Of a stretch of 64,000 bases of DNA, positions 1 to 62,895 are shown in pieces; positions within the stretch are counted from its first letter, which is position 1; every line of letters starts with the position of its first letter. The position numbers were made by a program, and so were the translations under genes. The stretch lies in IMG/VR virus record IMGVR_UViG_2851976983_000001, positions 1-64,000 of that record, one strand, 5' to 3'. Source of the stretch: a virus (lineage: Duplodnaviria > Heunggongvirae > Uroviricota > Caudoviricetes). The notes beneath the pieces are model-generated. The model did no database searches and was not told the DNA's origin. It was given only the letters and a program-made list of their open reading frames with translations.

Positions 1-437
1 TCGATAACTAGCGAGTCGGTGTCCATTTCTTCTGTCATGCTGCCAACGAGAACATTCAACTCACGCTCTTCAAAGCCGAAAACCTCGATATCGTCCAGAA
101 CAAGCGACTCAAGCTCTTTCTGTAGCTTAATTGCATCGTAATCAATGCTGGCAAGTCGGTTATCTTCAAGGCGCTTCGCACGAACCTCGTCATCACTGAG
201 ATCATCGCGAACAATAACCGGTACGCGCTCAAGTCCAGCAAAAATTGCAGCCTCACGGCGGCCGTGGCCAGTAATAATTACGTCGTTCTTATCGACCGTA
301 ATTGGCTGGTCAAATCCGCGCTTTTTAATGGCTGCGGCTAGATCTCGGATCTGCTGTTCATCATGCTTTTTGGCATTCATCTCATAGGGAATAAGATCTG
401 CCGGGTCGCGATATACGATTTCAAACTTTTTGGTCAT
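1..437 (-). CDS. ParB-like nuclease-domain protein, 3'-partial (runs off window start)
   Basis: Reverse-strand ATG at 437-435 (TAATG overlap with upstream gene) translates MTKKFEIVYRDPADL...; a ParB/Srx-type ITGHGRREAA motif follows in the same frame (looser read); no stop before position 1; absent from ORF track because open at window edge. Confidence 0.5.
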   Translation of the reverse strand, partial: MTKKFEIVYRDPADLIPYEMNAKKHDEQQIRDLAAAIKKRGFDQPITVDKNDVIITGHGRREAAIFAGLERVPVIVRDDLSDDEVRAKRLEDNRLASIDYDAIKLQKELESLVLDDIEVFGFEERELNVLVGSMTEEMDTDSLVI

Positions 438-1135
438 TACATACGCTCCTTGTAGTAGTCGACCAGCCACACCAGAGCCTCACCAGCGTTCTCCATTTCA
501 TTACCGGTGTTAATAGCCTGCTCTTTGATGATGTTTTTTATGGTTTCTGCAACACGATCTGACGCATCGAAAGTTACTTTGAAGCGCATGGTCTGATGTT
601 CCGCCCCCACACGTTCGGTTTTCTCTCGTTTGTCGGTATCGACAGGCTCATCACTACCACGAGACAACGCCTCCAGTGCTTCAAGGTCGATTGCCGCCTC
701 TTTTGCTAAAACCATCGAGATTTCGTCGTCATACGGGGCGATTTCAGACAGTTGATAGTCAAGTTCTGACTGAATTTCTTCAATGAAGCGTTGCAATGCG
801 ATTTGGTCGTCTTCACCGTATCGCTCGTTGTCCACCAGTGACATCTGTTTAGCTACGACATCGCTAATTTTGCCCACAGAAAGCACTGGAACCGTTGAAA
901 TTCCTTGCTCAATAGCGGCACGCCAGCGATGTTCGCCGCCGAGGATTTCAAAAAATCCATCTTCAAGTTCACGAGCCAAAATTGGCTTAAAAAAGCCCAA
1001 TTTTTCGATAGAACCTTTCAGTTTTTCAAAATTCTGCGCACCAACCGAATTGGTGTTCCAGGTATTCGGGCGAAGGTTGGCAACATCAACCTGCAAAATC
1101 GTGATTTTTACATCCATTTTATTGCTACAATCCAC
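437..1135 (-). CDS. ParB N-terminal-domain-like protein
   Basis: 232-aa ORF; FFEILGGEHRWRAAIEQG resembles the ParB/sulfiredoxin-fold box; tandem with the partial ParB-like gene. Confidence 0.5.
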   Translation of the reverse strand: MDCSNKMDVKITILQVDVANLRPNTWNTNSVGAQNFEKLKGSIEKLGFFKPILARELEDGFFEILGGEHRWRAAIEQGISTVPVLSVGKISDVVAKQMSLVDNERYGEDDQIALQRFIEEIQSELDYQLSEIAPYDDEISMVLAKEAAIDLEALEALSRGSDEPVDTDKREKTERVGAEHQTMRFKVTFDASDRVAETIKNIIKEQAINTGNEMENAGEALVWLVDYYKERM

Positions 1136-3108: not shown

Positions 3109-3531
3109 ATGAAATACTCGCTTCTCCCTCTACTAACGTTACCAGTGTTGATGCTTACCGCGTGCCAATCACGCCCAATATCAATCCATGACGCCAAACC
3201 AGCACCGCAGGCCAAAGTGTTCAAGTATCAAAGCGCAGCGCCAGCTACGTTGGTGGTAATGAGAGACACAGGTTTTGTAGGAGCTGGATGTGATGCTTCC
3301 ATTTTCATCAACGGCGAAACTGTCGCAAAACTGGCTACAGGCGAAAAAGCGACTTTCCATTTAAATGCCGGAGAATTAATTGTGGGTGCATCTCTTGAAG
3401 GTGCAGGTTTATGTGCTCTAAACCCCGCTCGTCAAGAGCGAGAAACGACTCTGAAGAATGGAGACACAAAAGCGTTCAGGGTGTTCACCAGCAATTCTGG
3501 TGACATCGACATTCTGCCAACAACTCTGTGA
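3109..3531 (+). CDS. putative lipoprotein
   Basis: Internal Met start MKYSLLPLLTLPVLMLTAC gives signal peptide plus lipobox LTAC; the longer track ORF from 3067 is probably an N-terminal over-extension. Confidence 0.55.
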   Translation: MKYSLLPLLTLPVLMLTACQSRPISIHDAKPAPQAKVFKYQSAAPATLVVMRDTGFVGAGCDASIFINGETVAKLATGEKATFHLNAGELIVGASLEGAGLCALNPARQERETTLKNGDTKAFRVFTSNSGDIDILPTTL

Positions 3532-3535
3532 TGAC

Positions 3536-4060
3536 ATGACAACCAAAGATATTACCTACGGTATCCAAGCTGAACTCTGGCCGCGAGATTACACTAACGT
3601 TGAAAAACTACTGATGTTCTGGCGCAGAGAACAAATTCCTGTAAGGGTCACTCTCGAAGATGGTCAGGCGTTTTGCATGTACGTTTATGGCCTCATGCCA
3701 TCTCGCAACAAAGTTGACCTTTGCCCAGCCCCTTTTGACAAAGAAAATCGTATAAGGCTCCCACTTGAACGCATTAGTACAATTGAATCAGGTGTGGTTG
3801 ACAGTATCGCTCACGATTTCAAAGGTCGATTAACAGTTCACCCTGATTATGTCGATAATCGGCCATCACGCCGCGATTTTTTTGCAATTTGCAACCAAGC
3901 CTACAAAGCAAACAAATCTATAAGGGTGTACATGGCGGATGGCCGTGAAATTGAGGGGGTGTCAGCAGGCGCAGATGCTTGTCAGGTTACACTACGTGTC
4001 GAGAACGGTAGAAAAATAGTTGTTTTGTTCGATTGGGTTGAACGAATTTTGCCTTTTTGA
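3536..4060 (+). CDS. hypothetical protein (174 aa)
   Basis: Track ORF 3458..4060 overlaps the lipoprotein gene; first in-frame ATG after the lipoprotein stop is 3536 (MTTKDITYG...). Confidence 0.45.
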   Translation: MTTKDITYGIQAELWPRDYTNVEKLLMFWRREQIPVRVTLEDGQAFCMYVYGLMPSRNKVDLCPAPFDKENRIRLPLERISTIESGVVDSIAHDFKGRLTVHPDYVDNRPSRRDFFAICNQAYKANKSIRVYMADGREIEGVSAGADACQVTLRVENGRKIVVLFDWVERILPF

Positions 4061-5810: not shown

Positions 5811-5815
5811 AATCG

Positions 5816-5841
5816 AGCGCCCACTATGGGCGCTTTTTTCG
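5816..5841 (+). terminator. rho-independent terminator
   Basis: Hairpin GAGCGCCCACTATGGGCGC followed by TTTTTT; near-identical stem at 5319-5337. Confidence 0.6.
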
Positions 5842-5863
5842 TTTCCAATACTTCCACCATAAC

Positions 5864-5887
5864 GCGCCAATGATGGCGCTTTTTTTA
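5864..5887 (+). terminator. rho-independent terminator (tandem second)
   Basis: Hairpin GCGCCAATGATGGCGC followed by TTTTTTT. Confidence 0.55.
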
Positions 5888-6264
5888 TTGTCTTTGACTC
5901 ACTCCAACAACATAAAAATAAGCGCCAAAATAACGCCACAGACGAGCTTTTATATCCTTACCAGTATATACCCATTACTTAGCGCATTAACGCGCTTAAA
6001 ACGCGTTATATTGCGTTATGGTGTATGGTTAATCATTGGCTTTTAGTCTTGCTTTATGATCCGCGTTTATTTGTCGGCGCGGATCGGCATTTTGTTTTGT
6101 TCCGTATCCGCTCGCGTATTATGTGCGCGTGATTTTTCACATAATCACACCACTTAATCACGTATGTGATTATGCTACGAAAGAAATCTGGATGTCTCAG
6201 GCGACGAAAGTCATCATAATTTTCCCCGCTCACCTGTCCGACAACCGCTGGTTGGATTCCACCA

Positions 6265-6420
6265 GCTTCCCGATGTTTTTTTCTACACAAAGGCGAATGC
6301 AGCCGTTTCCCGAAAAAATCCTGGCCGTTTCCCGTCGGCTCATGAATGCGTTCCTTGCCGTTTCTGAAAATTTCCCTGCGGCAGCTGGTGGCTATAGAGA
6401 AAGGGCCGTTTCTGGCCCTC
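6265..6420. repeat. iterated GCCGTTTCCC-type repeats (block copy 1)
   Basis: About 5 copies of gccgtttccc/gccgtttct at roughly 22-bp spacing; also contains TTCCCTGCGGCAGCTGGTGGCTATAGAGAAA, related to sequence at 8690-8715. Confidence 0.6.
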
Positions 6421-6427
6421 TTCTCAG

Positions 6428-6910
6428 TTACACGCCATCAAGGATGTGGATGCGGTTGCTTGCGTATACATTCAGCATAAAGTTAGCGCAAAACAGTTTC
6501 CATGTATCAACGCCAGCGGTATACGTAATGTTTTTGCATTTAATTGCATTGTTGGCGATCCGCATCCCCTGCGATACTGCTTCATCGTCGGAAAATTTGA
6601 ACGACGATTGAGTTTTAATCCAGACAGAAATCTGCGTAGCGAACTCAATCAACTTGGACTGGCAGAATCGCCCGGAGCGCACCGGAAAGACGAACGTTCC
6701 GAATCCAGAATTTACCACATACGCTTTCTCAAATACCCGCGAGTAACGACGATTGCCAATGATGTCGCGTGCAATAATGCATTTTTCTTGTGCTGACAGT
6801 TCTACCGTCTCATTGTCGCGCCATGCACCAAGTACTCGTTTTTCAATGTCAGAGAACGTTACAGCGATATTGCCATGTGCGGGTGCGTTTACAGTAGCGA
6901 TAAAATTCAT
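6428..6910 (-). CDS. hypothetical protein (160 aa)
   Basis: ORF with AAACAAATTGTTTTCTT motif immediately upstream. Confidence 0.5.
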   Translation of the reverse strand: MNFIATVNAPAHGNIAVTFSDIEKRVLGAWRDNETVELSAQEKCIIARDIIGNRRYSRVFEKAYVVNSGFGTFVFPVRSGRFCQSKLIEFATQISVWIKTQSSFKFSDDEAVSQGMRIANNAIKCKNITYTAGVDTWKLFCANFMLNVYASNRIHILDGV

Positions 6911-7114
6911 GATTAATTCCTTATCGTAAATAACAAATTGTTTTCTTGTTGGTGTTAATTATCGTTGTACGAATAAGGCGTCAAAGTGGAAAGTTGCGGT
7001 AGCCGGACGGGAACAGGTGGGTTTGTCGGTTGCCTGGAGGTAAGAGGTTGGTGTTTTTAGCCTGCGGGAAACAGGATGGTCATTTAAGGCCACCAATGCT
7101 GATGGCCTTAATAA

Positions 7115-7258
7115 TTATCGACCGATTACGCTAAGGATCTTTTCCTCAACTGATTTGTTGTTGCGACTAAACTGCCTTGCGTATCTGATGACAGAAGAGG
7201 CGTTTTGCTTTCTGACCATCTCGGCTCTTTCCTTCAGGCGTTTCTTGAAATCGCCCAT
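7115..7258 (-). CDS. possible small basic protein (47 aa)
   Basis: Hand translation MGDFKKRLKERAEMVRKQNASSVIRYARQFSRNNKSVEEKILSVIGR; below the track length cut-off; weak. Confidence 0.25.
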   Translation of the reverse strand: MGDFKKRLKERAEMVRKQNASSVIRYARQFSRNNKSVEEKILSVIGR

Positions 7259-7260
7259 AT

Positions 7261-7637
7261 TTACCACCAGGCGCAGAAGGTCAGTTTATTATTGTGAAAG
7301 TCGTGGTTCTTAATCAGATCTTCCACAAGCTCTTTCAACTCCCCCACATCATGCCAGTAACCTTCATCGTACTCCTGACTGCCGAAGAAAAAACCTTCCC
7401 GAGTAGGCAAGTACTCTTCGCAATTACTTTCGTTTATGTGCATCAAATGAGCTTTCAGAAGACAAATGTCATTCATCGTTAATTCTAAAAGCTCACAATT
7501 TTCGACTTCACCTACGTTGCGCTCCATCCACCCAACGAGCGCATTGAACTTACGGAAGTAAGCAACCTGCTTTCTGGATGCCTCGTTATTCAGATCGTTT
7601 TTAGGCTGTGTCTCGATATAGATATCAAGTCCCATGA
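7261..7637 (-). CDS. hypothetical protein
   Basis: Track ORF 7261..7677; internal start MGLDIYIETQ preferred on RBS spacing. Confidence 0.45.
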
Positions 7638-7752
7638 TGGTTTCCTTATTAAGTTGCTTCAGTGAAATCATTTTCACAAATCAGATAAGGCAGAAAACAA
7701 ATTGTTATCGGGTATAAGAAAATGGCGCGGTTTGCGCGCCATTTAAAGAGGA

Positions 7753-8148
7753 TTAAGCGAATACGCTTTCAGGGATTAAGGTGTCAGCAGGAATGCCGGA
7801 GGTAATGCGCAGACCATACTGGCCAATCCAGGTGGTGCTGGTGTTCAGGCTGGAGGCGAATACGGTGTTAACCATATTCATCATGGTTTCAAACACCTCT
7901 TCATCAACCTGGCGGAAGTAGTTCTCGATTTTCAGCAGCAGCGGGTCAGTTGCATCGAGAATGGACTGGTATTGAGTCGCGTACTCGCCGCCGGAGGCAT
8001 CACCTTTACGCACGATCGTACTGGCCTGGACTTCGGCACCAGTTTCGGTGTTGTACGTAACAACGGTGATTTTTGCCACATTCTTACCTTCGGCGGTTTC
8101 AGAGGCATAGTAAACATCAACTGTCAGTTTTTCGCGTTTAACGGTCAT
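7753..8148 (-). CDS. hypothetical protein (131 aa)
   Basis: ORF with palindrome GTAAGTATGTACTTAC upstream (8194-8211). Confidence 0.5.
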   Translation of the reverse strand: MTVKREKLTVDVYYASETAEGKNVAKITVVTYNTETGAEVQASTIVRKGDASGGEYATQYQSILDATDPLLLKIENYFRQVDEEVFETMMNMVNTVFASSLNTSTTWIGQYGLRITSGIPADTLIPESVFA

Positions 8149-8274
8149 TTCACTCTCCGTAGTGTCTTGGTTATTTTTCTATTCTATGATCGTAAGTATG
8201 TACTTACAATACAAAAAAGCCCCGTAAGGATGGCGGGGCTGTCGTACGGTCGACTAATTACCACTTGCACATTA

Positions 8275-8586
8275 TCAGGCTATTGCCATCACTGATGCTC
8301 TCTGAATTTCTTGCTGGGCCACGCGGTTAACTTCCATCAAGGCCAGTTCGAGCTGATGTTCCGGCCACATTCTTTGAAACGCCATCCAGCCTTTTCCACG
8401 CTGGCGACGAACATTCATTACATAACGAGTAAAGGTGTTTTTATCGAAAGACACCGCTGTTTCACGGAACAGACGAATAGAGGTTCCATTGGCAACGATG
8501 TCCAGCAAAGTTAATTGAGCAACCAGTGCAGGCTTCTCTTTTCTCTTCTGGTCTTTGTCCAGACCAAGAACCAATGATTTTTTCAT
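8275..8586 (-). CDS. hypothetical protein
   Basis: Track ORF 8275..8616; likely start MKKSLVLGL; AAACAACTTGTTTTCT motif upstream. Confidence 0.45.
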   Translation of the reverse strand: MKKSLVLGLDKDQKRKEKPALVAQLTLLDIVANGTSIRLFRETAVSFDKNTFTRYVMNVRRQRGKGWMAFQRMWPEHQLELALMEVNRVAQQEIQRASVMAIA

Positions 8587-8739
8587 CACAACTCCGTAAA
8601 CAACTTGTTTTCTCAATGGCGTAAATAATACCAGTAAGAAAACGGCTACAAAGCATAATGATCAGGTGCATGGGCGATATGCAGGTTCTTCCCTGCGGCT
8701 ATAGAGAAATTAAGCCAGCAATGCTGGCTTTGGTTGGGA

Positions 8740-9069
8740 TTACGCGAATACCTCAAGAAACTCCTGAACGTCCCAATGCTGGACGAGGTGAAGATAGACC
8801 TTAGAAATCACGTCATTTTCGCTATCGCATGTGAAGTAGTACTTCTGGCTGCGGTTGTATGTGTCCACACAAAATTCGCTCATATCCATAAAGTCAGCAT
8901 CTTCACCCAGGTCGCTGATCATCAAAGCAGGTGCATCATCACGAGTCATCAGCTCCAGCACCCATCTTGAATTAATCAGAGTGGAAGACCAACCTTCCAG
9001 CTCATAGAACTGGTCAAACTCTTTTTGAGTTAATTTCTTGATTTGGTTGATGTCGATATTTGCAAACAT
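8740..9069 (-). CDS. hypothetical protein
   Basis: Track ORF 8740..9090; likely start MFANIDINQ; AAACAACATGTTTTCTTGTTGGTGTTAT motif upstream. Confidence 0.45.
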   Translation of the reverse strand: MFANIDINQIKKLTQKEFDQFYELEGWSSTLINSRWVLELMTRDDAPALMISDLGEDADFMDMSEFCVDTYNRSQKYYFTCDSENDVISKVYLHLVQHWDVQEFLEVFA

Positions 9070-9429
9070 AAAGCAATCCTTAAACAACATGTTTTCTTGT
9101 TGGTGTTATTATCGCAATAACACACAGGCGAAAAAGGATTTTATTCCGGTGAATGTGGTTTTGGCAGTGAGTTTTCAGGTTCAGTATCGAGTACACTTTT
9201 TACATTATTCTGATTTAGTGGCCGAAGGTGGCTGGTGGGCAGAATAATCCTCTCCCCGAAAACCTACTGAAATCGATTGTGACCCGCTGACTGTCTGGCA
9301 CAATTACGCTGTAGTTGGGCATTCAGAGGGAATCCAGCGGTAAGTAAGTTCGCCTGCACGTGAGCGCCTCTCTTCTTCCCGCACATTACAGGTGGGTAGC
9401 CGCAACTCTCCCTCACGCTATACCGGTAC

Positions 9430-9575
9430 GCCGCCGTTCCTGAACCGGCATCGAGCCTTTTCCCGAAATCCACACAGGCAACTCGACCGTTTCCCTGAAA
9501 ACCTCCAGCCGTTCCCCGAAGGCAACCCAGCCGTTTCTGTAGCGGGATGCAGCCTTTTCCCTGTATGGACCGAAG
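9430..9575. repeat. iterated GCCGTTTCCC-type repeats (block copy 2)
   Basis: Six copies (gccgttcctgaa, gccttttcccgaaa, accgtttccctgaaaa, gccgttccccgaa, gccgtttctgtag, gccttttccctgta) at about 22-23 bp spacing. Confidence 0.65.
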
Positions 9576-9739
9576 GCTGACCGTAGGGGTGTTACGGGGG
9601 ATAAAATCAGGAGTTGAATAAATACGAAAAAGGAGGCGACACCCCTCCTTCCCTCCCCACTTATACATACCTGACTTCTTCGCTATACATGTTGTGTTTT
9701 CTTCGTGTTTTATCTGTCTCAACCTCTCTATAGTCGTTA

Positions 9740-10540
9740 ATGCTCACTCCTTCCAGAACGTTCTATACGGCGACTATTTCTGTTGGTGAATTGGGTGTGT
9801 TGTTTTCTCTGTCGGTGTATGTGGTTTCGTTAGTTTTGCGGTGATTCTTCTATGGGGTGTTCTCGTCGTTTTGGTGATTGTTCTTCTCCGTGTATGGAGT
9901 AATGGCAGGTTGGCGATTCCTTTCGTTATTGTGTTTGAGTTGTTTGTCTGGAGTGTGTGAAGGCTTTTGTAGTTATTCGTGTATTGGGTAATGGCGTTTC
10001 CCGTGATTGTTATGTTTCGTGTCTTTTGGGATTGAGAGAAACCTTGCGGTTACAGGCTTCGTTGGGGTTTCAGCGGTTCAGGTGTTTCTTCGCTGTTTGG
10101 GTAATGGCGTGTCGTGGGTATCGCGCGTATGAATGTTTTCGGATTGCCTGTGAAAGTTAGGTTGGTTGTCCGGTAGCCTGGGGAGAAGAGGTGGGTCTTT
10201 TCGGTAGCCTGCCATAAAGAGGTTGGTTGTTTTGGGAATGGCATATGTGTTATTTAGTTGTTTTGTTATGCCTGAAAATAAGTTGTTTATATGGTTGTGT
10301 AACGCAACGGGAACGATTTTGAGCGTGTGTTTTTGTTGGTAGTGTGTTGAGTCGTCTGTGGTGAAAATTGGACGCTGTGGCGCTGTCTGCTGCGTAGAAT
10401 TACGGGTATAAGAAGTGATGTGTGAAAACGTCAATTTTTTAGACCAAATCGGGTGAAAGCGTTGATGTTTCGTTGATCTGTTATTTAGTTGTTTTCTTGA
10501 TTGTATAAACAACTATAACTTATTGATATTTAAGGATGTG
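9740..10540. other. 0.8-kb non-coding region, strongly G+T-rich on the + strand
   Basis: Very few C on the + strand; degenerate internal repeats (GGGTAATGGCGT at 9980 and 10100; GGTAGCCTGG..GAGGTGGG at 10160-10245, related to 7000-7075); track ORFs here are low-complexity artefacts. Confidence 0.6.
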
Positions 10541-10631
10541 ATTGCGGGTATGGAAGGGGAGTAGTGGCGATCAACGGATTCTTATAGAAAAGAATCAAAT
10601 TGTGACCGCCATTATCAATAAGTTACAACCG

Positions 10632-12036: not shown

Positions 12037-14070
12037 TTACTTAACCTGGTGGCCAGGTTTAGCACCGACATCCGGGCTTAACAGGAAGATATCTTTCCCG
12101 CCAGGGCCAGCAGCCATCACCATGCCTTCGGAGATACCGAAGCGCATTTTACGCGGAGCCAGGTTAGCCACCATAATGGTGTGACGACCAATCAGTGCCT
12201 GTGGGTCTGGATAAGCAGAACGAATGCCGGAGAAGACATTGCGTTTTTCACCGCCGAGATCCAGCGTCAGGCGTAGCAGTTTGTCAGAACCTTCAACAAA
12301 CTCTGCGTTTTCGATCAACGCCACGCGCAGGTCAACTTTGGCGAAGTCGTCAAAGGTGATGGTTTCCTGAATCGGGTCGTCAGCCAGTGGGCCAGTTACC
12401 GGTGCGGCTGTGGCTTTCACTTCTTCTTTGGATGCTTCCACCAGTGCTTCAACCTGCTTCATATCGATGCGGTTATACAGTGCCTTGAACGGATTCACTT
12501 TATGGCCCAGCAGCGGTTGCTGGATACCATCCCAGGTCAGTTCTGTATTCAGGAATGCTTCTGCACGTTCAGTCAGTTTCGGCAGTACCGGCTTCAGGTA
12601 CGTCATCAGCACGCGGAACAGGTTAATGCCCATAGAGCAAATCGCCTGCAGATCGGCATCGCGTCCTTCCTGCTTCGCCACCACCCACGGAGCCTGTTCA
12701 TCGACATAGCGGTTAGCCAGATCAGCCAGCGCCATGATTTCACGAATCGCTTTACCAAATTCGCGGCTTTCCCATGCTTCACCAATCACTTCAGCGGCAT
12801 CAGTAAAGGTTTTGTACAGTTGCGGGTCAGCCAGTTCGCCTGCCAGCACACCGTCAAAACGCTTATTGATAAAGCCCGCGTTACGGGACGCCAGATTCAC
12901 CACTTTGTTCACGATATCGGCATTCACGCGCTGAACGAAATCCTCCAGGTTGAGATCGATATCATCAATGCGCGAAGAGAGTTTCGCAGTGTAGTAGTAA
13001 CGCAGGCTGTCAGCGTCAAAATGATTCAGCCAGGTGCTGGCTTTAATAAAGGTGCCGCGAGACTTGGACATCTTCGCACCGTTCACCGTCACATAGCCGT
13101 GAACAAATAGGTTAGTCGGCTTGCGGAAGTTGCTGCCTTCCAGCATGGCAGGCCAGAACAGGCTGTGGAAGTAAACGATATCTTTACCGATGAAGTGATA
13201 CAGCTCGGCGGTGGAGTCTTTCTTCCAGTATTCATCGAAGCTGGTGGTATCGCCGCGCTTGTCGCACAGATTCTTGAAGGAACCCATGTAGCCAATCGGC
13301 GCGTCCAGCCAGACGTAGAAGTATTTGCCCGGTGCGTTCGGAATTTCAAAACCGAAGTAAGGTGCGTCACGGGAGATATCCCACTGTTGCAGGCCAGATT
13401 CAAACCACTCCTGCATTTTGTTTGCCACCTGCTCCTGCAACGCACCGCTGCGGGTCCATGCCTGCAACATTTCGCTGAAAGAAGGCAGATCAAAGAAGAA
13501 GTGTTCGGAATCACGCATTACCGGCGTAGCACCAGAAACTACCGATTTCGGCTCGATCAGTTCAGTCGGGCTGTAAGTCGCGCCGCAGACTTCACAGTTA
13601 TCGCCGTATTGATCTGGCGCTTTACATTTAGGGCAGGTGCCTTTTACAAAACGGTCCGGCAGGAACATGCCTTTTTCCGGGTCGTACAGCTGAGAGATAG
13701 TGCGGTTTTTAATAAAACCGTTCTCTTTCAGGCGAGTATAGATAAGCTCAGACAACTGACGGTTCTCTTCGCTGTGCGTCGAGTGATAGTTGTCATAGCT
13801 GATGTTAAAGCCTGCGAAATCAGTCTGGTGTTCCTGACTCATTTCGCCAATCATCTGCTCCGGTGTGATACCAAGCTGCTGTGCTTTCAGCATGATCGGC
13901 GTACCGTGGGCATCGTCGGCACAGATGAAATTAACCTCGTGGCCGCGCATTCGCTGGTAACGAACCCAGACATCAGCCTGGATGTGCTCCAGCATATGGC
14001 CGAGGTGGATTGAGCCGTTAGCGTACGGCAGCGCGCACGTCACCAGAATTTTCTTCGCGACTTGGGTCAT
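12037..14070 (-). CDS. metG: methionine--tRNA ligase (MetRS)
   Basis: Class I aaRS HIGH-type motif ([14 protein letters not shown]), KMSKS, zinc knuckle CPKC...CEVC, C-terminal tRNA-binding domain; near-identical over full length to enterobacterial MetG as I recall it; start set at MTQVAKK (14070), not the 720-aa track ORF. Confidence 0.95.
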
Positions 14071-14227
14071 AGTAGGCATTACTTCTTTGTAGTGAAAAGG
14101 GGCTTGATAGTAACAAAATGGCCTTATGTCTGCCATGTGATAACAGCATTTCTCATAAATGATTAAATGTCGTAGCTGGAGTACACTACAAGGCGACAAT
14201 TGCGCAAATTAAAATAAAGGAGACGGG

Positions 14228-15328
14228 ATGAGCGAGTCCAAATCGCCGGATGCCCTGAGAGCAATGGTAGCCGGTACGCTGGCTAATTTTCAGCACCCAA
14301 CCCTGAAACACAACCTGACTACGCTTAAAGCGTTACACCATGTTGCGTTGATGGATGACACACTGCATGTCGAACTAATCATGCCTTTCGTGTGGAATAA
14401 GCCTTTTGAAGACCTGAAAGAGCAATGTAGTGGTGATCTGCTCCGTATCACTGGCGCAAAGGCTATTGACTGGAAGCTGTCGTACAACATTGCCACGCTT
14501 AAGCGCGTCAAAAACCAACCAGGCATTAATGGCGTTAAGAACATTATCGCCGTCAGCTCAGGCAAAGGCGGCGTGGGTAAATCCTCCACGGCGGTAAACC
14601 TGGCACTGGCGTTGGCTGCTGAAGGTGCGAAAGTTGGTATTTTGGATGCCGATATCTATGGTCCATCAATTCCAACCATGCTGGGCGCGGAAAACCAACG
14701 TCCAACCTCACCTGACGGTACTCACATGGCACCTATCATGTCTCATGGCCTGGCAACCAACTCTATTGGTTATCTGGTCACCGACGACAATGCAATGGTG
14801 TGGCGTGGACCGATGGCCAGCAAGGCGCTGATGCAGATGTTGCAGGAAACTCTATGGCCTGATCTGGACTATCTCGTTCTCGATATGCCGCCGGGCACTG
14901 GTGATATTCAGTTGACGCTGGCGCAGAACATTCCTGTAACTGGTGCGGTTGTGGTAACTACGCCGCAAGACATCGCGCTGATCGATGCGAAGAAAGGCAT
15001 TGTGATGTTCGAAAAAGTCGAAGTGCCGGTACTGGGTATCGTCGAAAACATGAGTGTGCATATTTGCAGTAACTGCGGTCATCACGAGCCAATTTTTGGC
15101 ACCGGTGGCGCACAGAAACTGGCCGAGAAATACAACACGCAGTTGTTAGGCCAAATGCCACTTCATATCTCTCTTCGTGAAGATCTGGATAACGGAACAC
15201 CAACCGTTATTAGTCGTCCAGATAGCGAATTTACGGCTATTTATCGTGACCTCGCAGATCGCGTTGCTGCCCAAATGTATTGGCAAGGTGAAGTAATACC
15301 TGGCGAAATCGCATTCCGCGCAGTGTGA
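14228..15328 (+). CDS. apbC: Fe-S cluster carrier ATPase ApbC/Mrp
   Basis: P-loop SSGKGGVGKSS, CxxC pair (CSNCGHHEP); divergent from metG as in enterobacterial chromosomes. Confidence 0.9.
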   Translation: MSESKSPDALRAMVAGTLANFQHPTLKHNLTTLKALHHVALMDDTLHVELIMPFVWNKPFEDLKEQCSGDLLRITGAKAIDWKLSYNIATLKRVKNQPGINGVKNIIAVSSGKGGVGKSSTAVNLALALAAEGAKVGILDADIYGPSIPTMLGAENQRPTSPDGTHMAPIMSHGLATNSIGYLVTDDNAMVWRGPMASKALMQMLQETLWPDLDYLVLDMPPGTGDIQLTLAQNIPVTGAVVVTTPQDIALIDAKKGIVMFEKVEVPVLGIVENMSVHICSNCGHHEPIFGTGGAQKLAEKYNTQLLGQMPLHISLREDLDNGTPTVISRPDSEFTAIYRDLADRVAAQMYWQGEVIPGEIAFRAV

Positions 15329-27290: not shown

Positions 27291-27322
27291 CGCGCCACGA
27301 CTGGTCTGAAGCCATGTTCATG

Positions 27323-27423
27323 TATGCTGTCAGCGGTAATTGATAGTCTGTCAACGGTTCGCCGTATGCTGCCAACTGTTTTTGGTATGCTGCCAGCGGC
27401 AAATCAAGTATGCTGTCAGCGGT
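27323..27423. repeat. RepA iterons, upstream set (4 copies)
   Basis: GTATGCTGTCAGCGGT-type 16-mers at 27323, 27364, 27385, 27408. Confidence 0.8.
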
Positions 27424-27443
27424 TGAATGACAAAGGTGTCCAC

Positions 27444-28538
27444 ATGTCCACAAAAAATAAAAAAGGTAAAAATAACAAAGAAGTAGAAGATAATCTCGAC
27501 AACTTTGAAGAAGGTTCCCTTGAATTGTACACAGGGGAACTTGTCCCTAATAGCAACAATACAGTCCAACCAATTGCGTTGATGCGGCTGGGATTGTTCG
27601 TGCCCACGCTCAAGGGGACAAAATACAGCAAGCGTAACAAGCCAAATGAGATCGATGCTTCAAAGGAGCTTGTTCAGCTCGAAGTAGCCCGTTCTGAAGG
27701 CTATTCCGATATCAAGATAACCGGTCCTCGTCTCGACATGGATCATGATTTCAAAACGTGGGTGGGCGTTGTGCGTTCGCTGGCAGAATACGGCGAACCT
27801 AACGGTCGTGTCGAGTTAAGCATCACGAAATTTGCGAAGTTTTGTGGCTATCCATCGTCACAGATCCGCAAAACACTCCGCGACCGGCTTACAAACAGTC
27901 TTTTGAAGATCATGCGTACAACTCTGTCTTTCCAGAGAACGTATGAAGAAAAGAACGTCGACGGCTCTAACAAGATCTCGCTTCTGATGGTGCACCTCAT
28001 CAATAGCGTGGACTACAACGAGCAGAAAGATACGGTGGTGTTCTATGCAGAACCGAAGCTGGCCGAACTATATCGCTTTGACCATAAGGTTCTTTTGCAG
28101 TTAAAGGTTATCAATAAGCTACCACGCAAAGAAACAGCACAGGCTCTGTACACCTTCATCGAAAGTCTTCCAACCAAGCCTGCGCCGGTATCGCTTGCTC
28201 GATTGCGTGCGCGACTCAATTTGAGTAGCAGGAATGTCAGCTCGCAGAATCAGACTATACGTAACGGCTTAAAAGCTCTCCAAGATTTGGGCTATCTCGA
28301 ATACAGCGAGATTAAGCGAGGGCGGTCGATCTATATCCAGATTCACAGCCGCAATCCAAAACTTAAAGTCGCACCGCCAAAACCTGAAGACATCGAACCC
28401 AAAAAACCAGATGAGAAAGCCGGGGAAATTGATGCTAAACAGAACATTATCAACAAGATAACTGAACTTTCGCAGAATTTGACGCCTGAAAATATCAAGA
28501 TGATTGAGATCCTTTCCAATAGTCTCAAACTGCTTTGA
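27444..28538 (+). CDS. repA: iteron-binding replication initiator RepA (P1/P7 RepA family)
   Basis: Segments NSNNTVQPIALMRLG, KITGPRLDMDHDFKTW and HSRNPKLK match P1 RepA as I recall it; iterons on both sides; start at MSTKNKK with AAAGGTG RBS. Confidence 0.8.
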   Translation: MSTKNKKGKNNKEVEDNLDNFEEGSLELYTGELVPNSNNTVQPIALMRLGLFVPTLKGTKYSKRNKPNEIDASKELVQLEVARSEGYSDIKITGPRLDMDHDFKTWVGVVRSLAEYGEPNGRVELSITKFAKFCGYPSSQIRKTLRDRLTNSLLKIMRTTLSFQRTYEEKNVDGSNKISLLMVHLINSVDYNEQKDTVVFYAEPKLAELYRFDHKVLLQLKVINKLPRKETAQALYTFIESLPTKPAPVSLARLRARLNLSSRNVSSQNQTIRNGLKALQDLGYLEYSEIKRGRSIYIQIHSRNPKLKVAPPKPEDIEPKKPDEKAGEIDAKQNIINKITELSQNLTPENIKMIEILSNSLKLL

Positions 28539-29070
28539 TATGCTGTCAGCGGTGAAATGTATGCTATCAGCGGCTATTTTTCTGAAAAGTATGCTGTGAA
28601 CGGTTAAAGATATGCTACCAGCGGTATAGTGAGATAAACGTATGCTGTGAGCGGTAAATCATCTATCACCACTCAATGCTCTTTTATACCTCCCCAGTGG
28701 TTACTAACCTCGAAGAGTGCATTCCATATAGGTTTGCGCTCACTAACATTCTATTCCCATTGCGCTGATTACTTGTAGTGAAAGGTATTTATTGCCTGCT
28801 GCTCCCTGATAGAACGTATGCTGTCAGCGGTGTTTTATTGAGGAATTTTTGTTTGGATATGCTATCAGCGGTAATTAATGGCATATATCAGACCTTCGTA
28901 TGCTGCCAGCGGTAATTTTGTTCTGGTTATACCCATACCGATACACATTATTCATGCAATGTCTTAAGTATGCTGTCAGCGGTAAAAAATCGAGTAAAGT
29001 ATGCTGTGAGCGGTGAGATAGACTCTCGATATGCTATCAGCGGCAGTTGATTGTGTATGCTGTCAGCGGT
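28537..29070. repeat. RepA iterons, downstream set (12 copies in two clusters)
   Basis: (G/A)TATGCT(G/A)(T/C)(C/G)A(G/A)CGG(T/C) at 28537, 28559, 28589, 28610, 28641, 28816, 28857, 28898, 28968, 28999, 29030, 29055; begins at repA stop codon. Confidence 0.8.
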
Positions 29071-29117
29071 GACGACTATGAAATATGACTGCGGAACGTG
29101 CCGCAGTCAGTTTGCAT

Positions 29118-29330
29118 TTAGTGTATTTTCTTCAACAGACCCCAAAGTGTTCCGGCTTTTGTAGTCAGTTTTCCTGTTTCTGGATCGTACATACGCCATT
29201 CACGCCGCTGGTGGACGATATACCCATCTTCACGTTCCAGACGCTCAAGAATGCCAGGCTGCTTGAAACCCTTAGCACGCCAGTATCCGCTTGTTTTCTC
29301 GATTTCCAGACCTGCCAGTGTTAATGCCAT
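29118..29330 (-). CDS. hypothetical small protein (70 aa)
   Basis: ORF in co-directional string after the iteron array. Confidence 0.4.
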   Translation of the reverse strand: MALTLAGLEIEKTSGYWRAKGFKQPGILERLEREDGYIVHQRREWRMYDPETGKLTTKAGTLWGLLKKIH

Positions 29331-29665
29331 TATCCAACCTCCTTGCAGTCATCGAAAAGGTAGCTTTGCTGAGAAGCGTGAACGCCATAGAAGCCCTTGT
29401 ATTTGTTGTATACGAAGTGGTCTTCTCCGACGCCGGTTAATTTGCCATTACGGTTTGTGAGATATGGGGATGACAACACTCGATCGTCACGCACAACATA
29501 GAACTGGTCGCCGCTGTCTACGACCATCGCTCCATATGGTGCTTTTATGACGTCGGCAAGAGCGCCATTCTTAACGTCGGCTACAGACATTTCACACTGA
29601 TAAACAGTGGTGTCGGCCACAACGATCGAGGAAAGGAACAACAGAGTGAATGGGATGGCCTTCAT
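29330..29665 (-). CDS. secreted hypothetical protein (111 aa)
   Basis: N-terminal signal-like MKAIPFTLLFLSSIVVA. Confidence 0.45.
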   Translation of the reverse strand: MKAIPFTLLFLSSIVVADTTVYQCEMSVADVKNGALADVIKAPYGAMVVDSGDQFYVVRDDRVLSSPYLTNRNGKLTGVGEDHFVYNKYKGFYGVHASQQSYLFDDCKEVG

Positions 29666-29839
29666 GCTGCCACCTCTTTGATTACATCAAATGCTGAATT
29701 AAATACGAGCACGATAGCCAAAGCGTTTATGACTACGTCGTTCACCGGGGAAAAGACTTTACGAATGACACCGGTGAAAATGCAGTCGATGACAAAAGCT
29801 ATTGAAACGATGAGTAACAAGTATTCAATAAAAATCTTC
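29663..29839 (-). CDS. small membrane protein (58 aa)
   Basis: Hand translation MKIFIEYLLLIVSIAFVIDCIFTGV...; ATGA overlap with downstream gene. Confidence 0.35.
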
Positions 29840-29880
29840 ATGATAGGTAGATACTAACTTATATAAATTTTACTGTAAAC

Positions 29881-30156
29881 TCACTCAAAAGTGCTGATGC
29901 TTAAAATACGCTCAAGATGTTCGGCATCTTCATCACTGATTTGTTGAGTCTCTTCTACGTACCAACAGTTGCCGTTATGCCAACAAACACCATCATCATC
30001 AACCATCACTGAATCAGCGTCATGACCTGTATATTCAACAAGAGTACGCTGGATCAGCGCGTCAGTTTCTTCGTCGTTAAGGCCATCGACTTTGATCATA
30101 AAAAGTGGAAACACGTCATAGACAGTGCTGGTAACGATTCGAACTAAAACTCTCAT
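29881..30156 (-). CDS. hypothetical protein (91 aa)
   Basis: Start preceded by AAAGGAAAAACAC-ATG motif. Confidence 0.45.
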   Translation of the reverse strand: MRVLVRIVTSTVYDVFPLFMIKVDGLNDEETDALIQRTLVEYTGHDADSVMVDDDGVCWHNGNCWYVEETQQISDEDAEHLERILSISTFE

Positions 30157-36883: not shown

Positions 36884-37212
36884 TGATGCCCGCCAATTGG
36901 CGGGCATCTGTTCTCTGTAAAGGTGTCTGGCATCGTCTGGTTCGTTAACGTTTACTAAACCAATGGTGACAAAAATTAGTTATCTTTGAAAAATAAAGGT
37001 TGCATGAAAAGAAGGGGTATGCGTTAATAGCATCGTTGGTTTGCAAGACAGACCTTATGTAAGCAGTTTTAGTAAAGCAGTCTCAGTTCAGTGTTATCTT
37101 CTGATTTCCCTTCTTCGTGAGTCTCCTCCTTAAGTGCCTAAGTAAGTCCCAATCTATACAGATCAAATTCTCGCCGCACTATGTGGCTCACAAAATTAAG
37201 AAGGTAATATCT

Positions 37213-37428
37213 ATGTCTAATAAAATGACTGGTTTAGTAAAATGGTTTAACTCTGATAAAGGCTTTGGCTTTATTTCTCCTGCTGATGGCAGTAAAGATG
37301 TTTTTGTACATTTTTCGGCAATTCAGAGTAATAATTTCCGCACTTTGGAAGAAGGCCAGCAGGTCGAATTCTCTATCGAGAATGGGGCTAAAGGCCCAGC
37401 AGCAGCAAATGTCGTTGCTCTAAGCTGA
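37213..37428 (+). CDS. cold-shock protein, CspA family
   Basis: [38 protein letters not shown] carries RNP1/RNP2 motifs; long 5' leader as in csp genes; track ORF from 37117 is over-extended. Confidence 0.9.
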
Positions 37429-37703
37429 TTCAACGCTGATGATCCTCATTTCTACAATAACGAAGACGGTGTAAGCCTGAGTGGATAGATTTGTAGGATT
37501 GTACAAGTTGAATAAATTAGCATGGTAAGGCCATGCTAATTAAATCGACACAACGGCCAGTTTATTCCATAAAAGTGAATTGCCCATTGTGGCGAAATGC
37601 GGGGTTGCCGCATGAATAGTCAAAGGCAGAAGCTAACTGCCGGCATGGCAAAACAAAGTGCGTAAGAGGAGTGACTTCCTCAACAAGCGCCATAATTCTT
37701 TAT

Positions 37704-52049: not shown

Positions 52050-52309
52050 CATGTTGTGAAACCAGGGGCTACATAGGCAACAATGATTTCACCAGAGGGT
52101 TAAAGAATCCTGCTTTCACAACGTTGAGGCCGCTGAACCGATTTATGTTCGACCCAACATATTGATCAGTCACTACAGCTCTGTGGAATCACCTGTATGA
52201 TTAAAAGAAAAACAGTGACCTCAACGTTGTGCGCTGGCTAACCAAGCCAGCCGGGTTACGTCGCCGCTTTTAACCCAAGATTAAACGACATAAGTAATGG
52301 AAATGACGT

Positions 52310-52382
52310 AACAGGATGGACGGTCAGCTGGCTGAAACCGGGATGATGGAATGGAATGAGGAAACCAACCGTCCATCCTGTT
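52310..52382. repeat. 17-bp inverted repeat with about 40-nt loop
   Basis: GTAACAGGATGGACGGT ... ACCGTCCATCCTGTTAC; followed by hairpin AGGGCATG...CATGCCCT. Confidence 0.55.
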
Positions 52383-52616
52383 ACTTCATCGAATAGGGCA
52401 TGGGTGGTGCAACATGCCCTATCCTGCGTTCTGAAATCACACTCGCTCAGTGTGTCCCATTTCGGTGACGAGGCTGGAAACTGACCTCGCTGGTGTTTGG
52501 CTTCTTAGGCTACTGCCAGGTACGTATCTTCGTTTGCAGTTATATTTAACGTTCAAACAGTCGCATCTCAACGAAAACAAGTGAATCTTATACGTATTAA
52601 ATAAGTAAGTAAATGC

Positions 52617-61868: not shown

Positions 61869-62227
61869 TAACCTTTTTTCATCAACTCTCGTTTGATTTC
61901 ATCGGTACGCATCGTGACATCGGCAGCTGTGATCGCCTCGTTAAGTTTCACGATGTCCTCGATTTCCTGCGGTGACTTCTCTGCCAGATGGAAAATGGCT
62001 GCGCGAATCACGTCTGAACGGGTGAACTTCTCGAAGCGAGGGATGAACTTCATCATCTCCAGCAGTTCGAAGTATTCGTCCTCCAGTGACATTGTGCGGC
62101 TTTTAATTTTCTCTTTGCCACGAGTCGGGCGTCCCTGTGGTCTGACTGGTTGGCGCAAAGGAGTTGTGTTCTTAGCCGGTGCATCAGGCTCTTTGCGCTT
62201 TGCTAGGTCACCCATTTTCATGGACAT
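61868..62227 (-). CDS. small partition-protein candidate (ParG/ParB-like partner of ParA)
   Basis: 119 aa, basic N-terminus; directly downstream of parA with overlapping stop/start. Confidence 0.5.
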   Translation of the reverse strand: MSMKMGDLAKRKEPDAPAKNTTPLRQPVRPQGRPTRGKEKIKSRTMSLEDEYFELLEMMKFIPRFEKFTRSDVIRAAIFHLAEKSPQEIEDIVKLNEAITAADVTMRTDEIKRELMKKG

Positions 62228-62895
62228 TATTCTTCTTCCTCCAGACTCAACAGATAATCTACAAATTCTTCAAACTCGGCTTCCGCCTTTTTGTCGCGCT
62301 CGCTACCGGTCATTTCAAAGATAGAACGACCAGACTCTTCCGCATCATCATAGACGTTGCGGTTATATAGATTGACTGGCGCAGACTCGATGCCAAACGT
62401 CTCAACAATCTCTTTAGCCGCCAGAATGCGAGACACTTGTGATGGCAAAGCCGGGCACTGGTTCATGACCGCGCGGACCTTCACTTTATCGTTTACATTA
62501 CGAACATTGTCGATAATAGGATCGATGTCACGCAGAGATTTCAAATCACGACGCTTAGGACGAAGCGGGATAATGATAACGTCGGCCATCAGCATCGCTT
62601 GTCGCTGAATTTCGGAGTCAAAGCCACCAGCATCTACCACTACATACTCAGCTCTACCCTGAAGCGATTTTAGGTGCTTAATGATGTCATCCTGAACGTA
62701 TGCAAAAGGAATCAGCTCAAGGTCTTCGTTCTGTCGACGGTCTTCACACCAGCTCGTTGTCGTGCGCTGAATATCTATATCGGTGATATAAACCTTCTTC
62801 TTCTTTTTGACTTTCAGGCAAACGGCAATTTGCTGGGCAACGGTGGATTTGCCAGGCCCGCCCTTTGTGCCGCCAACCACAAAGATCTTGGTCAT
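62227..62895 (-). CDS. parA: ParA-family partition ATPase (small type)
   Basis: Deviant Walker A GGTKGGPGKST at N-terminus, 222 aa. Confidence 0.8.
   Translation of the reverse strand: MTKIFVVGGTKGGPGKSTVAQQIAVCLKVKKKKKVYITDIDIQRTTTSWCEDRRQNEDLELIPFAYVQDDIIKHLKSLQGRAEYVVVDAGGFDSEIQRQAMLMADVIIIPLRPKRRDLKSLRDIDPIIDNVRNVNDKVKVRAVMNQCPALPSQVSRILAAKEIVETFGIESAPVNLYNRNVYDDAEESGRSIFEMTGSERDKKAEAEFEEFVDYLLSLEEEE

Follow-up and report, generated by a model that had tools for sequence, protein, structure and literature searches.

We analyzed positions 1 to 64,000 of IMG/VR virus record IMGVR_UViG_2851976983_000001 (the window), which represents an SSU5-type phage-plasmid related to Escherichia phage Cyrano. 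The segment at 6.0–10.7 kb is 97.9% identical to Cyrano (on the reverse strand) and 94–97% identical to three further E. coli phage records, with weaker similarity to Klebsiella phage-plasmids and Salmonella phage SSU5; within it, positions 9380–10560 are 100% identical in E. coli plasmid CP025897.1. Genes at 1.2–5.8 kb lie on the plus strand, and almost all genes rightward from 6.4 kb in the segment examined lie on the minus strand, making 5.8–6.4 kb a zone of convergent transcription. Two sets of repeat arrays stand in this segment 3.1 kb apart, each composed of a B array on the left and an A array on the right; in copy 1 the arrays surround a gene for a 160-amino acid protein, and copy 2 lies in a long gap between genes. 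As set out below, comparison with relatives gives good support to the view that these elements form a conserved, noncoding module specific to the SSU5-type family.

The gene-free gap and the repeat arrays

The gap extends from 9091 to 10631 (1541 bp) and is devoid of any credible or conserved open reading frame (ORF), as the initial annotation of this DNA had claimed for about 1.5 kb. In relatives, among them PhiR41_1 at 95% identity, stop codons or changes of frame interrupt both mechanical ORFs of the gap, 9264–9722 and 10078–10512 (minus strand). As controls, we inspected the flanking genes, which are intact in those relatives that carry them. The Prokaryotic Genome Annotation Pipeline places no gene in the corresponding 1.4–1.9 kb gaps of Klebsiella, Enterobacter, Citrobacter, and divergent E. 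coli elements (six sampled lineages), nor in the gap of the listed RefSeq E. coli plasmids. The region is noncoding by these comparisons, and the caveat of the initial annotation that it might prove to be coding is not borne out. No gene-free stretch of the element is longer; those next in size in Cyrano measure 744–849 bp.

Exact matches to the B core GCCKTTTCYS number seven in 64 kb, against 1.3 expected, and all of them fall within 6302–6414 or 9455–9561. The looser core CCKTTYCYN recovers four units in copy 1 (6303, 6325, 6358, and 6406, at spacings of 22, 33, and 48 bp) and six in copy 2 (9434, 9456, 9487, 9509, 9531, and 9553, at spacings of 22, 31, 22, 22, and 22 bp). The first array (6302–6415, plus strand) comprises four GCCGTTTCCC/GCCGTTTCTG units starting at 6302, 6324, 6357, and 6405 and lies inside a 0.6-kb gene-free convergence zone; the second (9433–9565, plus strand) has six units that are invariant across relatives, with variable spacers. 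The earlier report of units iterated about 22 bp apart in two regions is borne out by these 4 + 6 B units, and the motif is confined to the two places. The A unit follows GGTAGCCTG-N5-AAGAGGTKGG and, with up to three mismatches allowed, matches the window only at 6998, 7028, 10172, and 10203 (0.01 expected). A weight matrix built from 44 distinct A units recovered a further, degenerate unit at 10138, which brings the number to three per copy, 30–31 bp apart. A array copy 1 (6994–7086, plus strand) consists of GGTAGCC-N-AGGTGGG units at 6994, 7024, and 7052 with ∼30-bp spacing, and copy 2 (10138–10232, plus strand), with units at 10138 (the degenerate one), 10168, and 10199, belongs to the parts of the gap that vary least between genera. 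These units are the two-part element that the initial annotation had seen in both regions. All array units point in one orientation, and neither B nor A units are palindromic.

Over 107 kb of the 108-kb Cyrano genome, the A and B motifs, together with a TAATGGC motif described below, cluster only at this locus. Tandem Repeats Finder did not detect the arrays, because they are too degenerate. Three other gene-free gaps scanned in the window are without direct-repeat arrays, the iterons of RepA being the sole exception. When run against the whole genome collection, a pattern of paired B units proved too loose, giving chance matches in all phyla.

Similarity between the two copies is limited to the arrays, in alignments of 63–74 bp and ∼54 bp at 70–76% identity. 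The G+T-rich body of copy 2 retains no residual similarity to the 160-amino acid gene that occupies the corresponding position in copy 1, and tblastn of the 160-amino acid protein against the gap gave a best E of 0.13. With similarity limited in this way, the copies represent shared motif arrays and not a recent segmental duplication. A more remote origin by duplication would make copy 2 an old A-promoter-gene-terminator-B cassette whose gene has rotted while its flanking repeats still function. Order, orientation, and A-to-B length are the same in both copies, and the small early genes here do reside in cassettes with shared promoter and terminator junctions, but no trace of a gene is left, a rotting gene would not acquire or keep 65–69% G+T in every lineage, and the internal repeats have been conserved over genus-level divergence. 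We consider such decay distinctly unlikely.

Conservation of the module

Homologues of 9380–10560 were found in 836 plasmid records (888 places, or roughly one for each element) and 12 phage records at identities of 66–100%, and they come from at least six genera (Klebsiella, Escherichia, Enterobacter, Salmonella, Citrobacter, and Cronobacter). Among 5,426 complete E. coli genomes, the region is present in 243 (248 places; median one and maximum two per genome), always on a plasmid and in no case on a chromosome. The region is therefore not a host repeat of the repetitive extragenic palindromic kind, and the caveat of the initial annotation that the repeats might be a common host element does not apply.

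An alignment of six diverse relatives consists of conserved islands parted by variable DNA; these islands correspond to the A and B units, the repeats with TAATGGC, the operator-like sites, and the dyad at the right boundary. We compared array phasing in ∼70 loci from viral contigs and plasmids of several genera. Most E. coli, Salmonella, and Enterobacter types have a B spacing of exactly 22/31/22/22/22 in copy 2, and Klebsiella-type loci have 22/22 or 22/22/22 there; in copy 1, the spacing is 22/33–34 and then ∼48. In both copies and in all lineages, 650–790 bp lie between the first B unit and the first A unit. Across 18 distinct six-unit arrays, the positions of the units are invariant and the spacers are variable, a pattern that looks like a protein footprint. 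These comparisons give good support to the view that the repeat units are footprint-like, as expected if they were bound sequence-specifically along one helix face. The cooperative protein binding previously suggested from the spacing gains indirect support from the phasing in ∼70 loci, the invariant units, their single orientation, and the fact that no RNA or coding signal explains them.

The G+T-rich body

On the plus strand, G+T reaches 0.69 over 9700–10560 (∼860 bp), in agreement with the ∼800-bp G+T-biased stretch first noticed in the second copy. GC skew is +0.41 to +0.53 in 200-bp windows spanning 9800–10600, and AT skew falls as low as −0.64 at 9800–9999 and is about zero by 10400–10600. 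The strongly skewed core of the body (9700–10160, plus strand; ∼450 bp) holds three C units, which are ∼28-nt repeats containing TAATGGC, at 9884–9911, 9973–10000, and 10086–10113 (plus strand). We asked whether the body might be a long array of degenerate A units, and this was ruled out by there being only one extra unit, at 10138. Analysis of dinucleotide helical periodicity in the skewed body yielded no clear 10–11-bp signal. The composition is maintained in all six lineages, with body G+T at 0.65–0.69 even where identity is only ∼67%. A parsimony count over 25 close relatives, which is rough and has an uncertain rooting, predicts an equilibrium G+T of ∼0.59 against the 0.69 observed. On this count, present substitution flux would be eroding the G+T bias, which is thus probably not simply the present-day mutational equilibrium and may reflect either selection or history.

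A putative minus-strand RNA of this DNA would be 28–36% C and 9–16% G in every 80-nt window over 9860–10500, and the part from 9700 to 10160 (461 nt) is predicted to be nearly unstructured (−53 kcal/mol, z = −0.5 versus shuffles); plus-strand RNA of the body likewise shows no excess of structure over shuffles. Rho-dependent terminators are characterized by untranslated, unstructured RNA that is rich in C and poor in G, and the predicted minus-strand RNA has these properties. The gap could therefore represent a Rho-sensitive barrier, or an antitermination-controlled leader, between the cargo genes on its right and the early genes on its left, in which ∼0.7 kb of leftward transcript would be ideal for Rho loading, read-through coming from the cargo genes or the gene-less promoter would be halted, a phage antiterminator would relieve termination much as at lambda tR1/nut, and the A and B arrays would serve as regulator sites for the flanking early promoters and terminators. 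The orientation of the bias matches the direction of all neighboring genes, the right edge of the gap is where synteny with relatives breaks at the cargo, and the bias persists where identity does not. In addition, the A array of copy 1 lies directly upstream of a promoter, and B units follow terminators at 6405 and 8690. Against these points, a Rho site needs ∼100 nt and not 700, the explanation accounts for neither the phasing of the arrays nor their duplication nor the TAATGGC repeats, and no antiterminator has been identified. We regard the barrier as possible though doubtful, and the regulatory role that it would give the arrays likewise; it is a close second to the replication function discussed below, with which it is compatible.

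Other features of the module

Read leftward, copy 1 runs from the A array through an early-type promoter/operator (PO), the 160-amino acid gene, a terminator that is also the fourth B unit, and a Chi site at 6384 to the other three B units (6366–6302). The PO (6932–6986, minus strand) carries TTGACG, ATAATT, and the palindrome AACAAATTGTT and lies just upstream of the gene (6428–6910, minus strand), a conserved ORF of PHROG 1641 situated between A copy 1 and B copy 1. After the gene comes its intrinsic terminator (6405–6419, minus strand), GGGCC-AGAAAC-GGCCC followed by TTTCTCT, which doubles as the fourth B unit and whose stem is GGGGC...GCCCC in SSU5, Enterobacter, and Klebsiella. The Chi site, GCTGGTGG (6384–6391, plus strand), is within a conserved TTCCCTGCGGCAGCTGGTGG block that adjoins B copy 1. 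A gene for a 116-amino acid protein (8740–9090) shares this arrangement: its terminator and then a lone B-like unit, CTATAGCCGCAGGGAA, occupy 8680–8730 (minus strand), forming a terminator-plus-B junction as at 6375–6419, and its PO (9083–9137, minus strand) marks the left edge of the 1.5-kb gap.

The 0.5 kb of gene-free convergence zone to the left of B copy 1 (5811–6300) is ∼80% conserved across genera; it contains a 9-bp inverted repeat, ATAATCACA...TGTGATTAT, together with repeated AACGCG/AGCGCC motifs and a succession of three terminator-like hairpins. A match to Rfam Hrs1 at 5820–5886, outside the gap, is at chance level (E = 0.68).

The palindrome AACAAnTTGTT occurs eight times in the window (6932, 7696, 8599, 11890, 11941, 30655, 60002, and 62932), against 0.12 expected, and 12 times in Cyrano (83, 29260, 32081, 58596, 70327, 80550, 81279, 93115, 93166, 96287, 97191, and 98426). 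Every occurrence precedes a start codon by 23–76 nt on the coding strand, with terS, parA, and the helicase gene among the genes concerned. The palindrome has the look of an operator or 5′-leader element serving an undescribed, genome-wide regulon, for which an FljA-like repressor gene (Pfam Flag1_repress, 3458–4060) would be a candidate partner.

Leftward on the minus strand, copy 2 begins with the boundary dyad, a PO without a gene, a −35-like pair, half sites, and the A array, and continues with the skewed body, a conserved block, the B array, and ∼300 bp with a Chi site up to the PO of the 116-amino acid gene. The dyad, TGGCGATCA-N28-TGACCGCCA (10566–10611), is conserved, and rightward of it synteny with relatives stops and variable cargo starts. 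The PO-like unit (10478–10520, minus strand) has no downstream gene and points into the G+T-rich body; it falls within 10473–10532, which ranks sixth among the least stable 60-bp duplexes of the window. Next come a highly conserved inverted pair, CGTCAA...GTTGAT (GTTGAC in relatives; 10429–10466), which resembles back-to-back −35 elements, and two operator-like half units, TTATTTAGTTGTTTT and GAAAATAAGTTGTTTAT (10245–10302), related to the PO palindrome. The conserved block that leads from the B array to the skewed body (9566–9672) includes an invariant TTGAAT, CACTTATAC, and a 17-nt polypyrimidine tract at 9642–9658 (purine on the minus strand). A terminator-like hairpin (9653–9627, minus strand) is present in this lineage only and is not conserved in SSU5.

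The E. coli CT29 relative retains the second Chi site (9231–9238, plus strand), and Klebsiella differs from it at one position. Chi as a whole is ∼10-fold enriched in the window (14 GCTGGTGG sites versus 1.3 expected), with eight of ten sites at 2.5–40.5 kb on the plus strand and all four at 53.7–62.6 kb on the minus strand. The switch in polarity does not coincide with repA (27–29 kb), and it would fit double-strand ends arising at ∼41–53 kb.

The cargo to the right of the gap differs among relatives, being type I restriction-modification (R-M) with DUF262, a GIY-YIG nuclease, or membrane proteins. The stretch from body to dyad, together with a DUF262 gene and type I R-M, is also found in large Klebsiella IncFIB/IncHI1B plasmids, where the fragment is truncated by an insertion sequence (IS) and lies ∼2.2 kb from psiA; this suggests that cargo blocks are exchanged at the dyad border. 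We considered a link to conjugative leading regions and rejected it, as the psiA-adjacent match is an IS-truncated fragment that moved with its DUF262/type I R-M cargo and is not independent evidence. Just right of the module, the window carries a full-length methionyl-tRNA synthetase gene (12037–14199, minus strand) and a gene for an ApbC/Mrp-type Fe-S carrier ATPase (14228–15328, plus strand). The Cyrano homologue of the latter is among the lysogen-expressed genes in the LF82 data (PMC9928086).

Two observations concern more distant parts of the window. At 37035–37453 (plus strand) is a full-length match (186 bits) to the cspA thermoregulator 5′ leader, Rfam RF01766. Around a tRNA gene (51797–51868), a series of 19–22-bp inverted repeats spans 51710–52389, with the arms 42–43 nt apart in three of four pairs and 77 nt apart in the fourth; examples are 51710–51729/51773–51792 (100%) and 52303–52324/52368–52389 (95%).

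Transcription in lysogens

The supplementary RNA-seq table of the LF82 study (PMC9928086) reports ten libraries from a Cyrano lysogen, and it covers the gap because the Cyrano record annotates two nonconserved ORFs there, CYRAN_103 and CYRAN_104. CYRAN_103 has a log2(5 + FPKM, fragments per kilobase per million mapped reads) of 2.32, i.e., zero FPKM, in lysogeny broth and at most 4.27 over the ten libraries, and CYRAN_104, over the B array, ranges from 2.6 to 4.66 (PMC9928086). Overall, the gap gives 0–14 FPKM in LF82 lysogens (PMC9928086), in which it is close to silent. The PO-driven genes CYRAN_105–111 rise to 5.5–7.8 in macrophage conditions, and CYRAN_102, oriented toward the gap, belongs to the more strongly expressed genes of Cyrano, with ∼57 normalized reads or ∼6-fold over the local prophage background (PMC9928086).

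These values bear on the proposed barrier in two ways. The contrast between CYRAN_102 and the ORF just downstream of it, at 0 FPKM in LF82 lysogens, is what a barrier would produce. However, transcription arriving from the cargo on the right falls to zero in these lysogens just past the boundary dyad, and this drop comes ahead of most of the C-rich sequence.

The same data speak to a noncoding RNA made in the lytic phase from the gene-less promoter, either a C/A-rich sponge or decoy or a G-cluster RNA over the B array. Such an RNA would explain the PO-like promoter that stands without an ORF at the right end, the terminator-like hairpin at 9653–9627 in this lineage, and the regularly spaced GGGAAA motifs that the B units form on the minus strand. 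Yet expression stayed at 0–14 FPKM in all ten LF82 libraries, even with neighboring PO-driven genes induced; the hairpin is not conserved in SSU5; and the region has no Rfam match at gathering score or at E up to 5. Covariation does not support a structure at 9560–9672, where the RNAalifold covariation term is positive and two of 23 pairs are compensatory, and ARN (Hfq-type) motifs number four against 6.1 expected. The chance that such an RNA is the function of the region is slim. It is well supported that the module acts either at the DNA level or only in lytic growth, and the silence in lysogens fits a site used only in the latter.

Position relative to partition, terminase, and replication genes

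The module is not adjacent to par, terminase, helicase, primase, or integrase genes. Phased direct-repeat arrays are typical of type Ib and type II centromeres, and the element encodes a small ParA (window 62227–62895, corresponding to Cyrano 29307–29975) and ParB-like proteins (window 437–1135), raising the question of whether the arrays are an accessory centromere or plasmid-pairing site bound by a ParB-like or other partition protein. The presence of the region in all 836 plasmid-state records would also be expected of such a site. Nevertheless, the arrays are ∼50 kb from parA and at least 5 kb from the ParB-like genes, although known centromeres flank the par operon; ParB-type sites are palindromic and the array units are not; and the G+T bias would have no explanation. 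A centromere is, in our view, unlikely.

In Cyrano, the module occupies 94.3–99.4 kb of 108.4 kb, and the terminase genes are at 135–2023 (terS at 135–767), placing terS 9–14 kb away on the circle. A packaging (pac/cos) site, one of the functions initially proposed, or a first-entry/injection-control region could thus be imagined within the last 10–15 kb upstream of terS, and the phased repeats and large noncoding region do resemble lambda cosB and the T5 injection-stop region as outlined in 10.1101/866236. Known pac and cos sites, however, lie in or beside terminase genes, and near the small-terminase gene of Cyrano there are no arrays of this kind. Cyrano coverage in the LF82 virome is not above the plasmid background. 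We know of no two-step injection in SSU5-type phages. Packaging or entry control is accordingly very unlikely.

The element has replication genes of its own, annotated as helicase, primase, Pol III alpha and epsilon, RNase H, and UvsW-, UvsX-, and UvsY-like genes, with helicase domains among the annotations too; the helicase and primase genes are at 32–35 kb in Cyrano. No initiator gene is annotated in the element. Its plasmid replication gene, repA (Rep_3 family with a Rep3_N domain; 27324–28538), has at least 15 GTATGCTGTCAGCGGT iterons on both sides (27302–27443 and 28538–29090), mostly in ∼21-bp steps, and thus has the makeup of a classic iteron origin. We rejected the identification of the module as the plasmid origin or incompatibility locus, as the RepA iterons are a different 16-mer, located at 27.3–29.1 kb, and the B motif is absent there.

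Discussion

Both array blocks and the gap most likely constitute one cis-acting module that works at the DNA level. The reading that we place first, with a probability of roughly 0.3, is by analogy with known origins: the module may be a nucleoprotein site for phage-mode (lytic) replication with a remote second copy, a lytic origin having been the other function initially proposed. The arrays are phased on one helix face, with four to six B units at two or three turns and three A units at three turns, and the array pairs bracket ∼650–790 bp, holding the 160-amino acid gene with its promoter in copy 1 and the strand-biased, ORF-free spacer in copy 2. A protein encoded by the element would polymerize on the arrays and build a nucleoprotein complex for lytic replication, in which the second array set, 3.1 kb off, could act as an enhancer or pairing partner, and upon derepression the gene-less promoter would fire and the region would be opened. 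Protein binding to the arrays, the function in replication, and any role of transcription or an R-loop are steps that we infer.

We rank this function first because paired, phased clusters resemble P4 ori/crr, SPP1 oriL/oriR, and iteron plasmids; because replisome genes are encoded on the element, for which no lytic origin has been mapped; because the module occupies the largest gene-free region, with no other non-RepA arrays in the gaps scanned; and because a gene-less promoter points inward from unusually unstable DNA. As in P4 ori/crr and SPP1 oriL/oriR, two clusters of the same repeats lie a few kilobases apart on one replicon, one of them in noncoding DNA, and they are distinct from a plasmid-type origin. 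The sequence and spacing of the units are unrelated to those of P4 and SPP1, an initiator is known only for those systems, and it is by analogy with them that we propose a role in replication; furthermore, the two different arrays per site and the 0.8-kb strand-biased spacer have no counterpart there. With the iterons of theta plasmids (P1 incC/incA, RepFIB, and the RepA of this element), the module shares direct repeats at about two helical turns (22 bp for the B units, with one 31–34-bp step), four to six per cluster, and a second cluster elsewhere. It differs from iteron origins in having neither a neighboring Rep gene nor an enrichment of DnaA boxes, and GTATGCTGTCAGCGGT bears no relation to GCCGTTTCCC.

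Other likenesses involve transcription. The lambda tR1/rut (Rho utilization) region, under antitermination, also has a C-rich, G-poor, unstructured, untranslated RNA between an early promoter and further early genes, but the stretch here is ∼7 times the typical rut length and carries phased DNA repeats, and no nut-like boxA/boxB or antiterminator was identified. The R-loop origins oriF and oriG of T4 likewise have a promoter with a transcript that no protein depends on and, downstream of it, DNA that opens readily, and the element encodes UvsW, UvsX, UvsY, and gp32-like proteins and RNase H; T4, however, has neither iteron arrays nor a long skewed spacer, and an R-loop in the module is purely conjectural. 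The small early genes flanked by a near-identical promoter unit and terminator recall the ‘promoter-early stem-loop’ cassettes of the T4 type, and the T5 injection-stop region is another large, repeat-rich noncoding region of a siphovirus genome; those cassettes, and the T5 region as outlined in 10.1101/866236, are without A/B arrays or strand bias.

Several observations weigh against a replication site. No protein that binds the arrays has been identified. DnaA boxes (TTWTNCACA) number eight in 64 kb against 6.5 expected, with only one of them nearby (6133), and the unstable segment at 10473–10532 is not AT-rich in the SSU5 lineage. The module is far from the helicase and primase genes and has no initiator gene adjacent to it, and an origin requires no 0.8-kb G+T bias. 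B copy 1 comes just after an intrinsic terminator in the convergent zone, and the lone B-like unit follows the terminator at 8680–8730, so that B units placed after terminators fit a transcription-related role at least as well. Finally, the literature that we searched (most subscription journals lay outside it) contains no replication data for the SSU5-type family.

Transcription and replication could also be coupled. The gene-less promoter might give rise to an unstructured transcript poor in G and U across the keto-skewed spacer that lies between two phased protein arrays, and so link Rho-sensitive transcription to the start of phage-mode replication, a proposal that we advance very tentatively and hold to be rather unlikely. 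The module would then represent a phage-plasmid control region of a kind not described before, combining features of iteron and R-loop origins and using its second copy as a remote enhancer, and it would act as the switch between plasmid and lytic replication.

Phased repeat arrays in noncoding phage DNA are an already known kind of feature. For the combination seen here, i.e., two different arrays duplicated as a pair with their distance conserved, and one pair around a 0.8-kb keto-skewed spacer, we know of no close match, and we found in the literature searched neither a description of the region nor a mapped lytic origin for any SSU5-type element. Should the module be merely an ordinary regulatory leader, the gain would be modest. 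In Escherichia, Klebsiella, Salmonella, and Enterobacter, the SSU5 type ranks with the most common phage-plasmids, and its members carry resistance and defense genes; the module could serve as a sequence marker for typing them. Naming the protein that binds the arrays would give a handle on the control of replication in these elements, on the insulation of their cargo from lytic genes, or on both.

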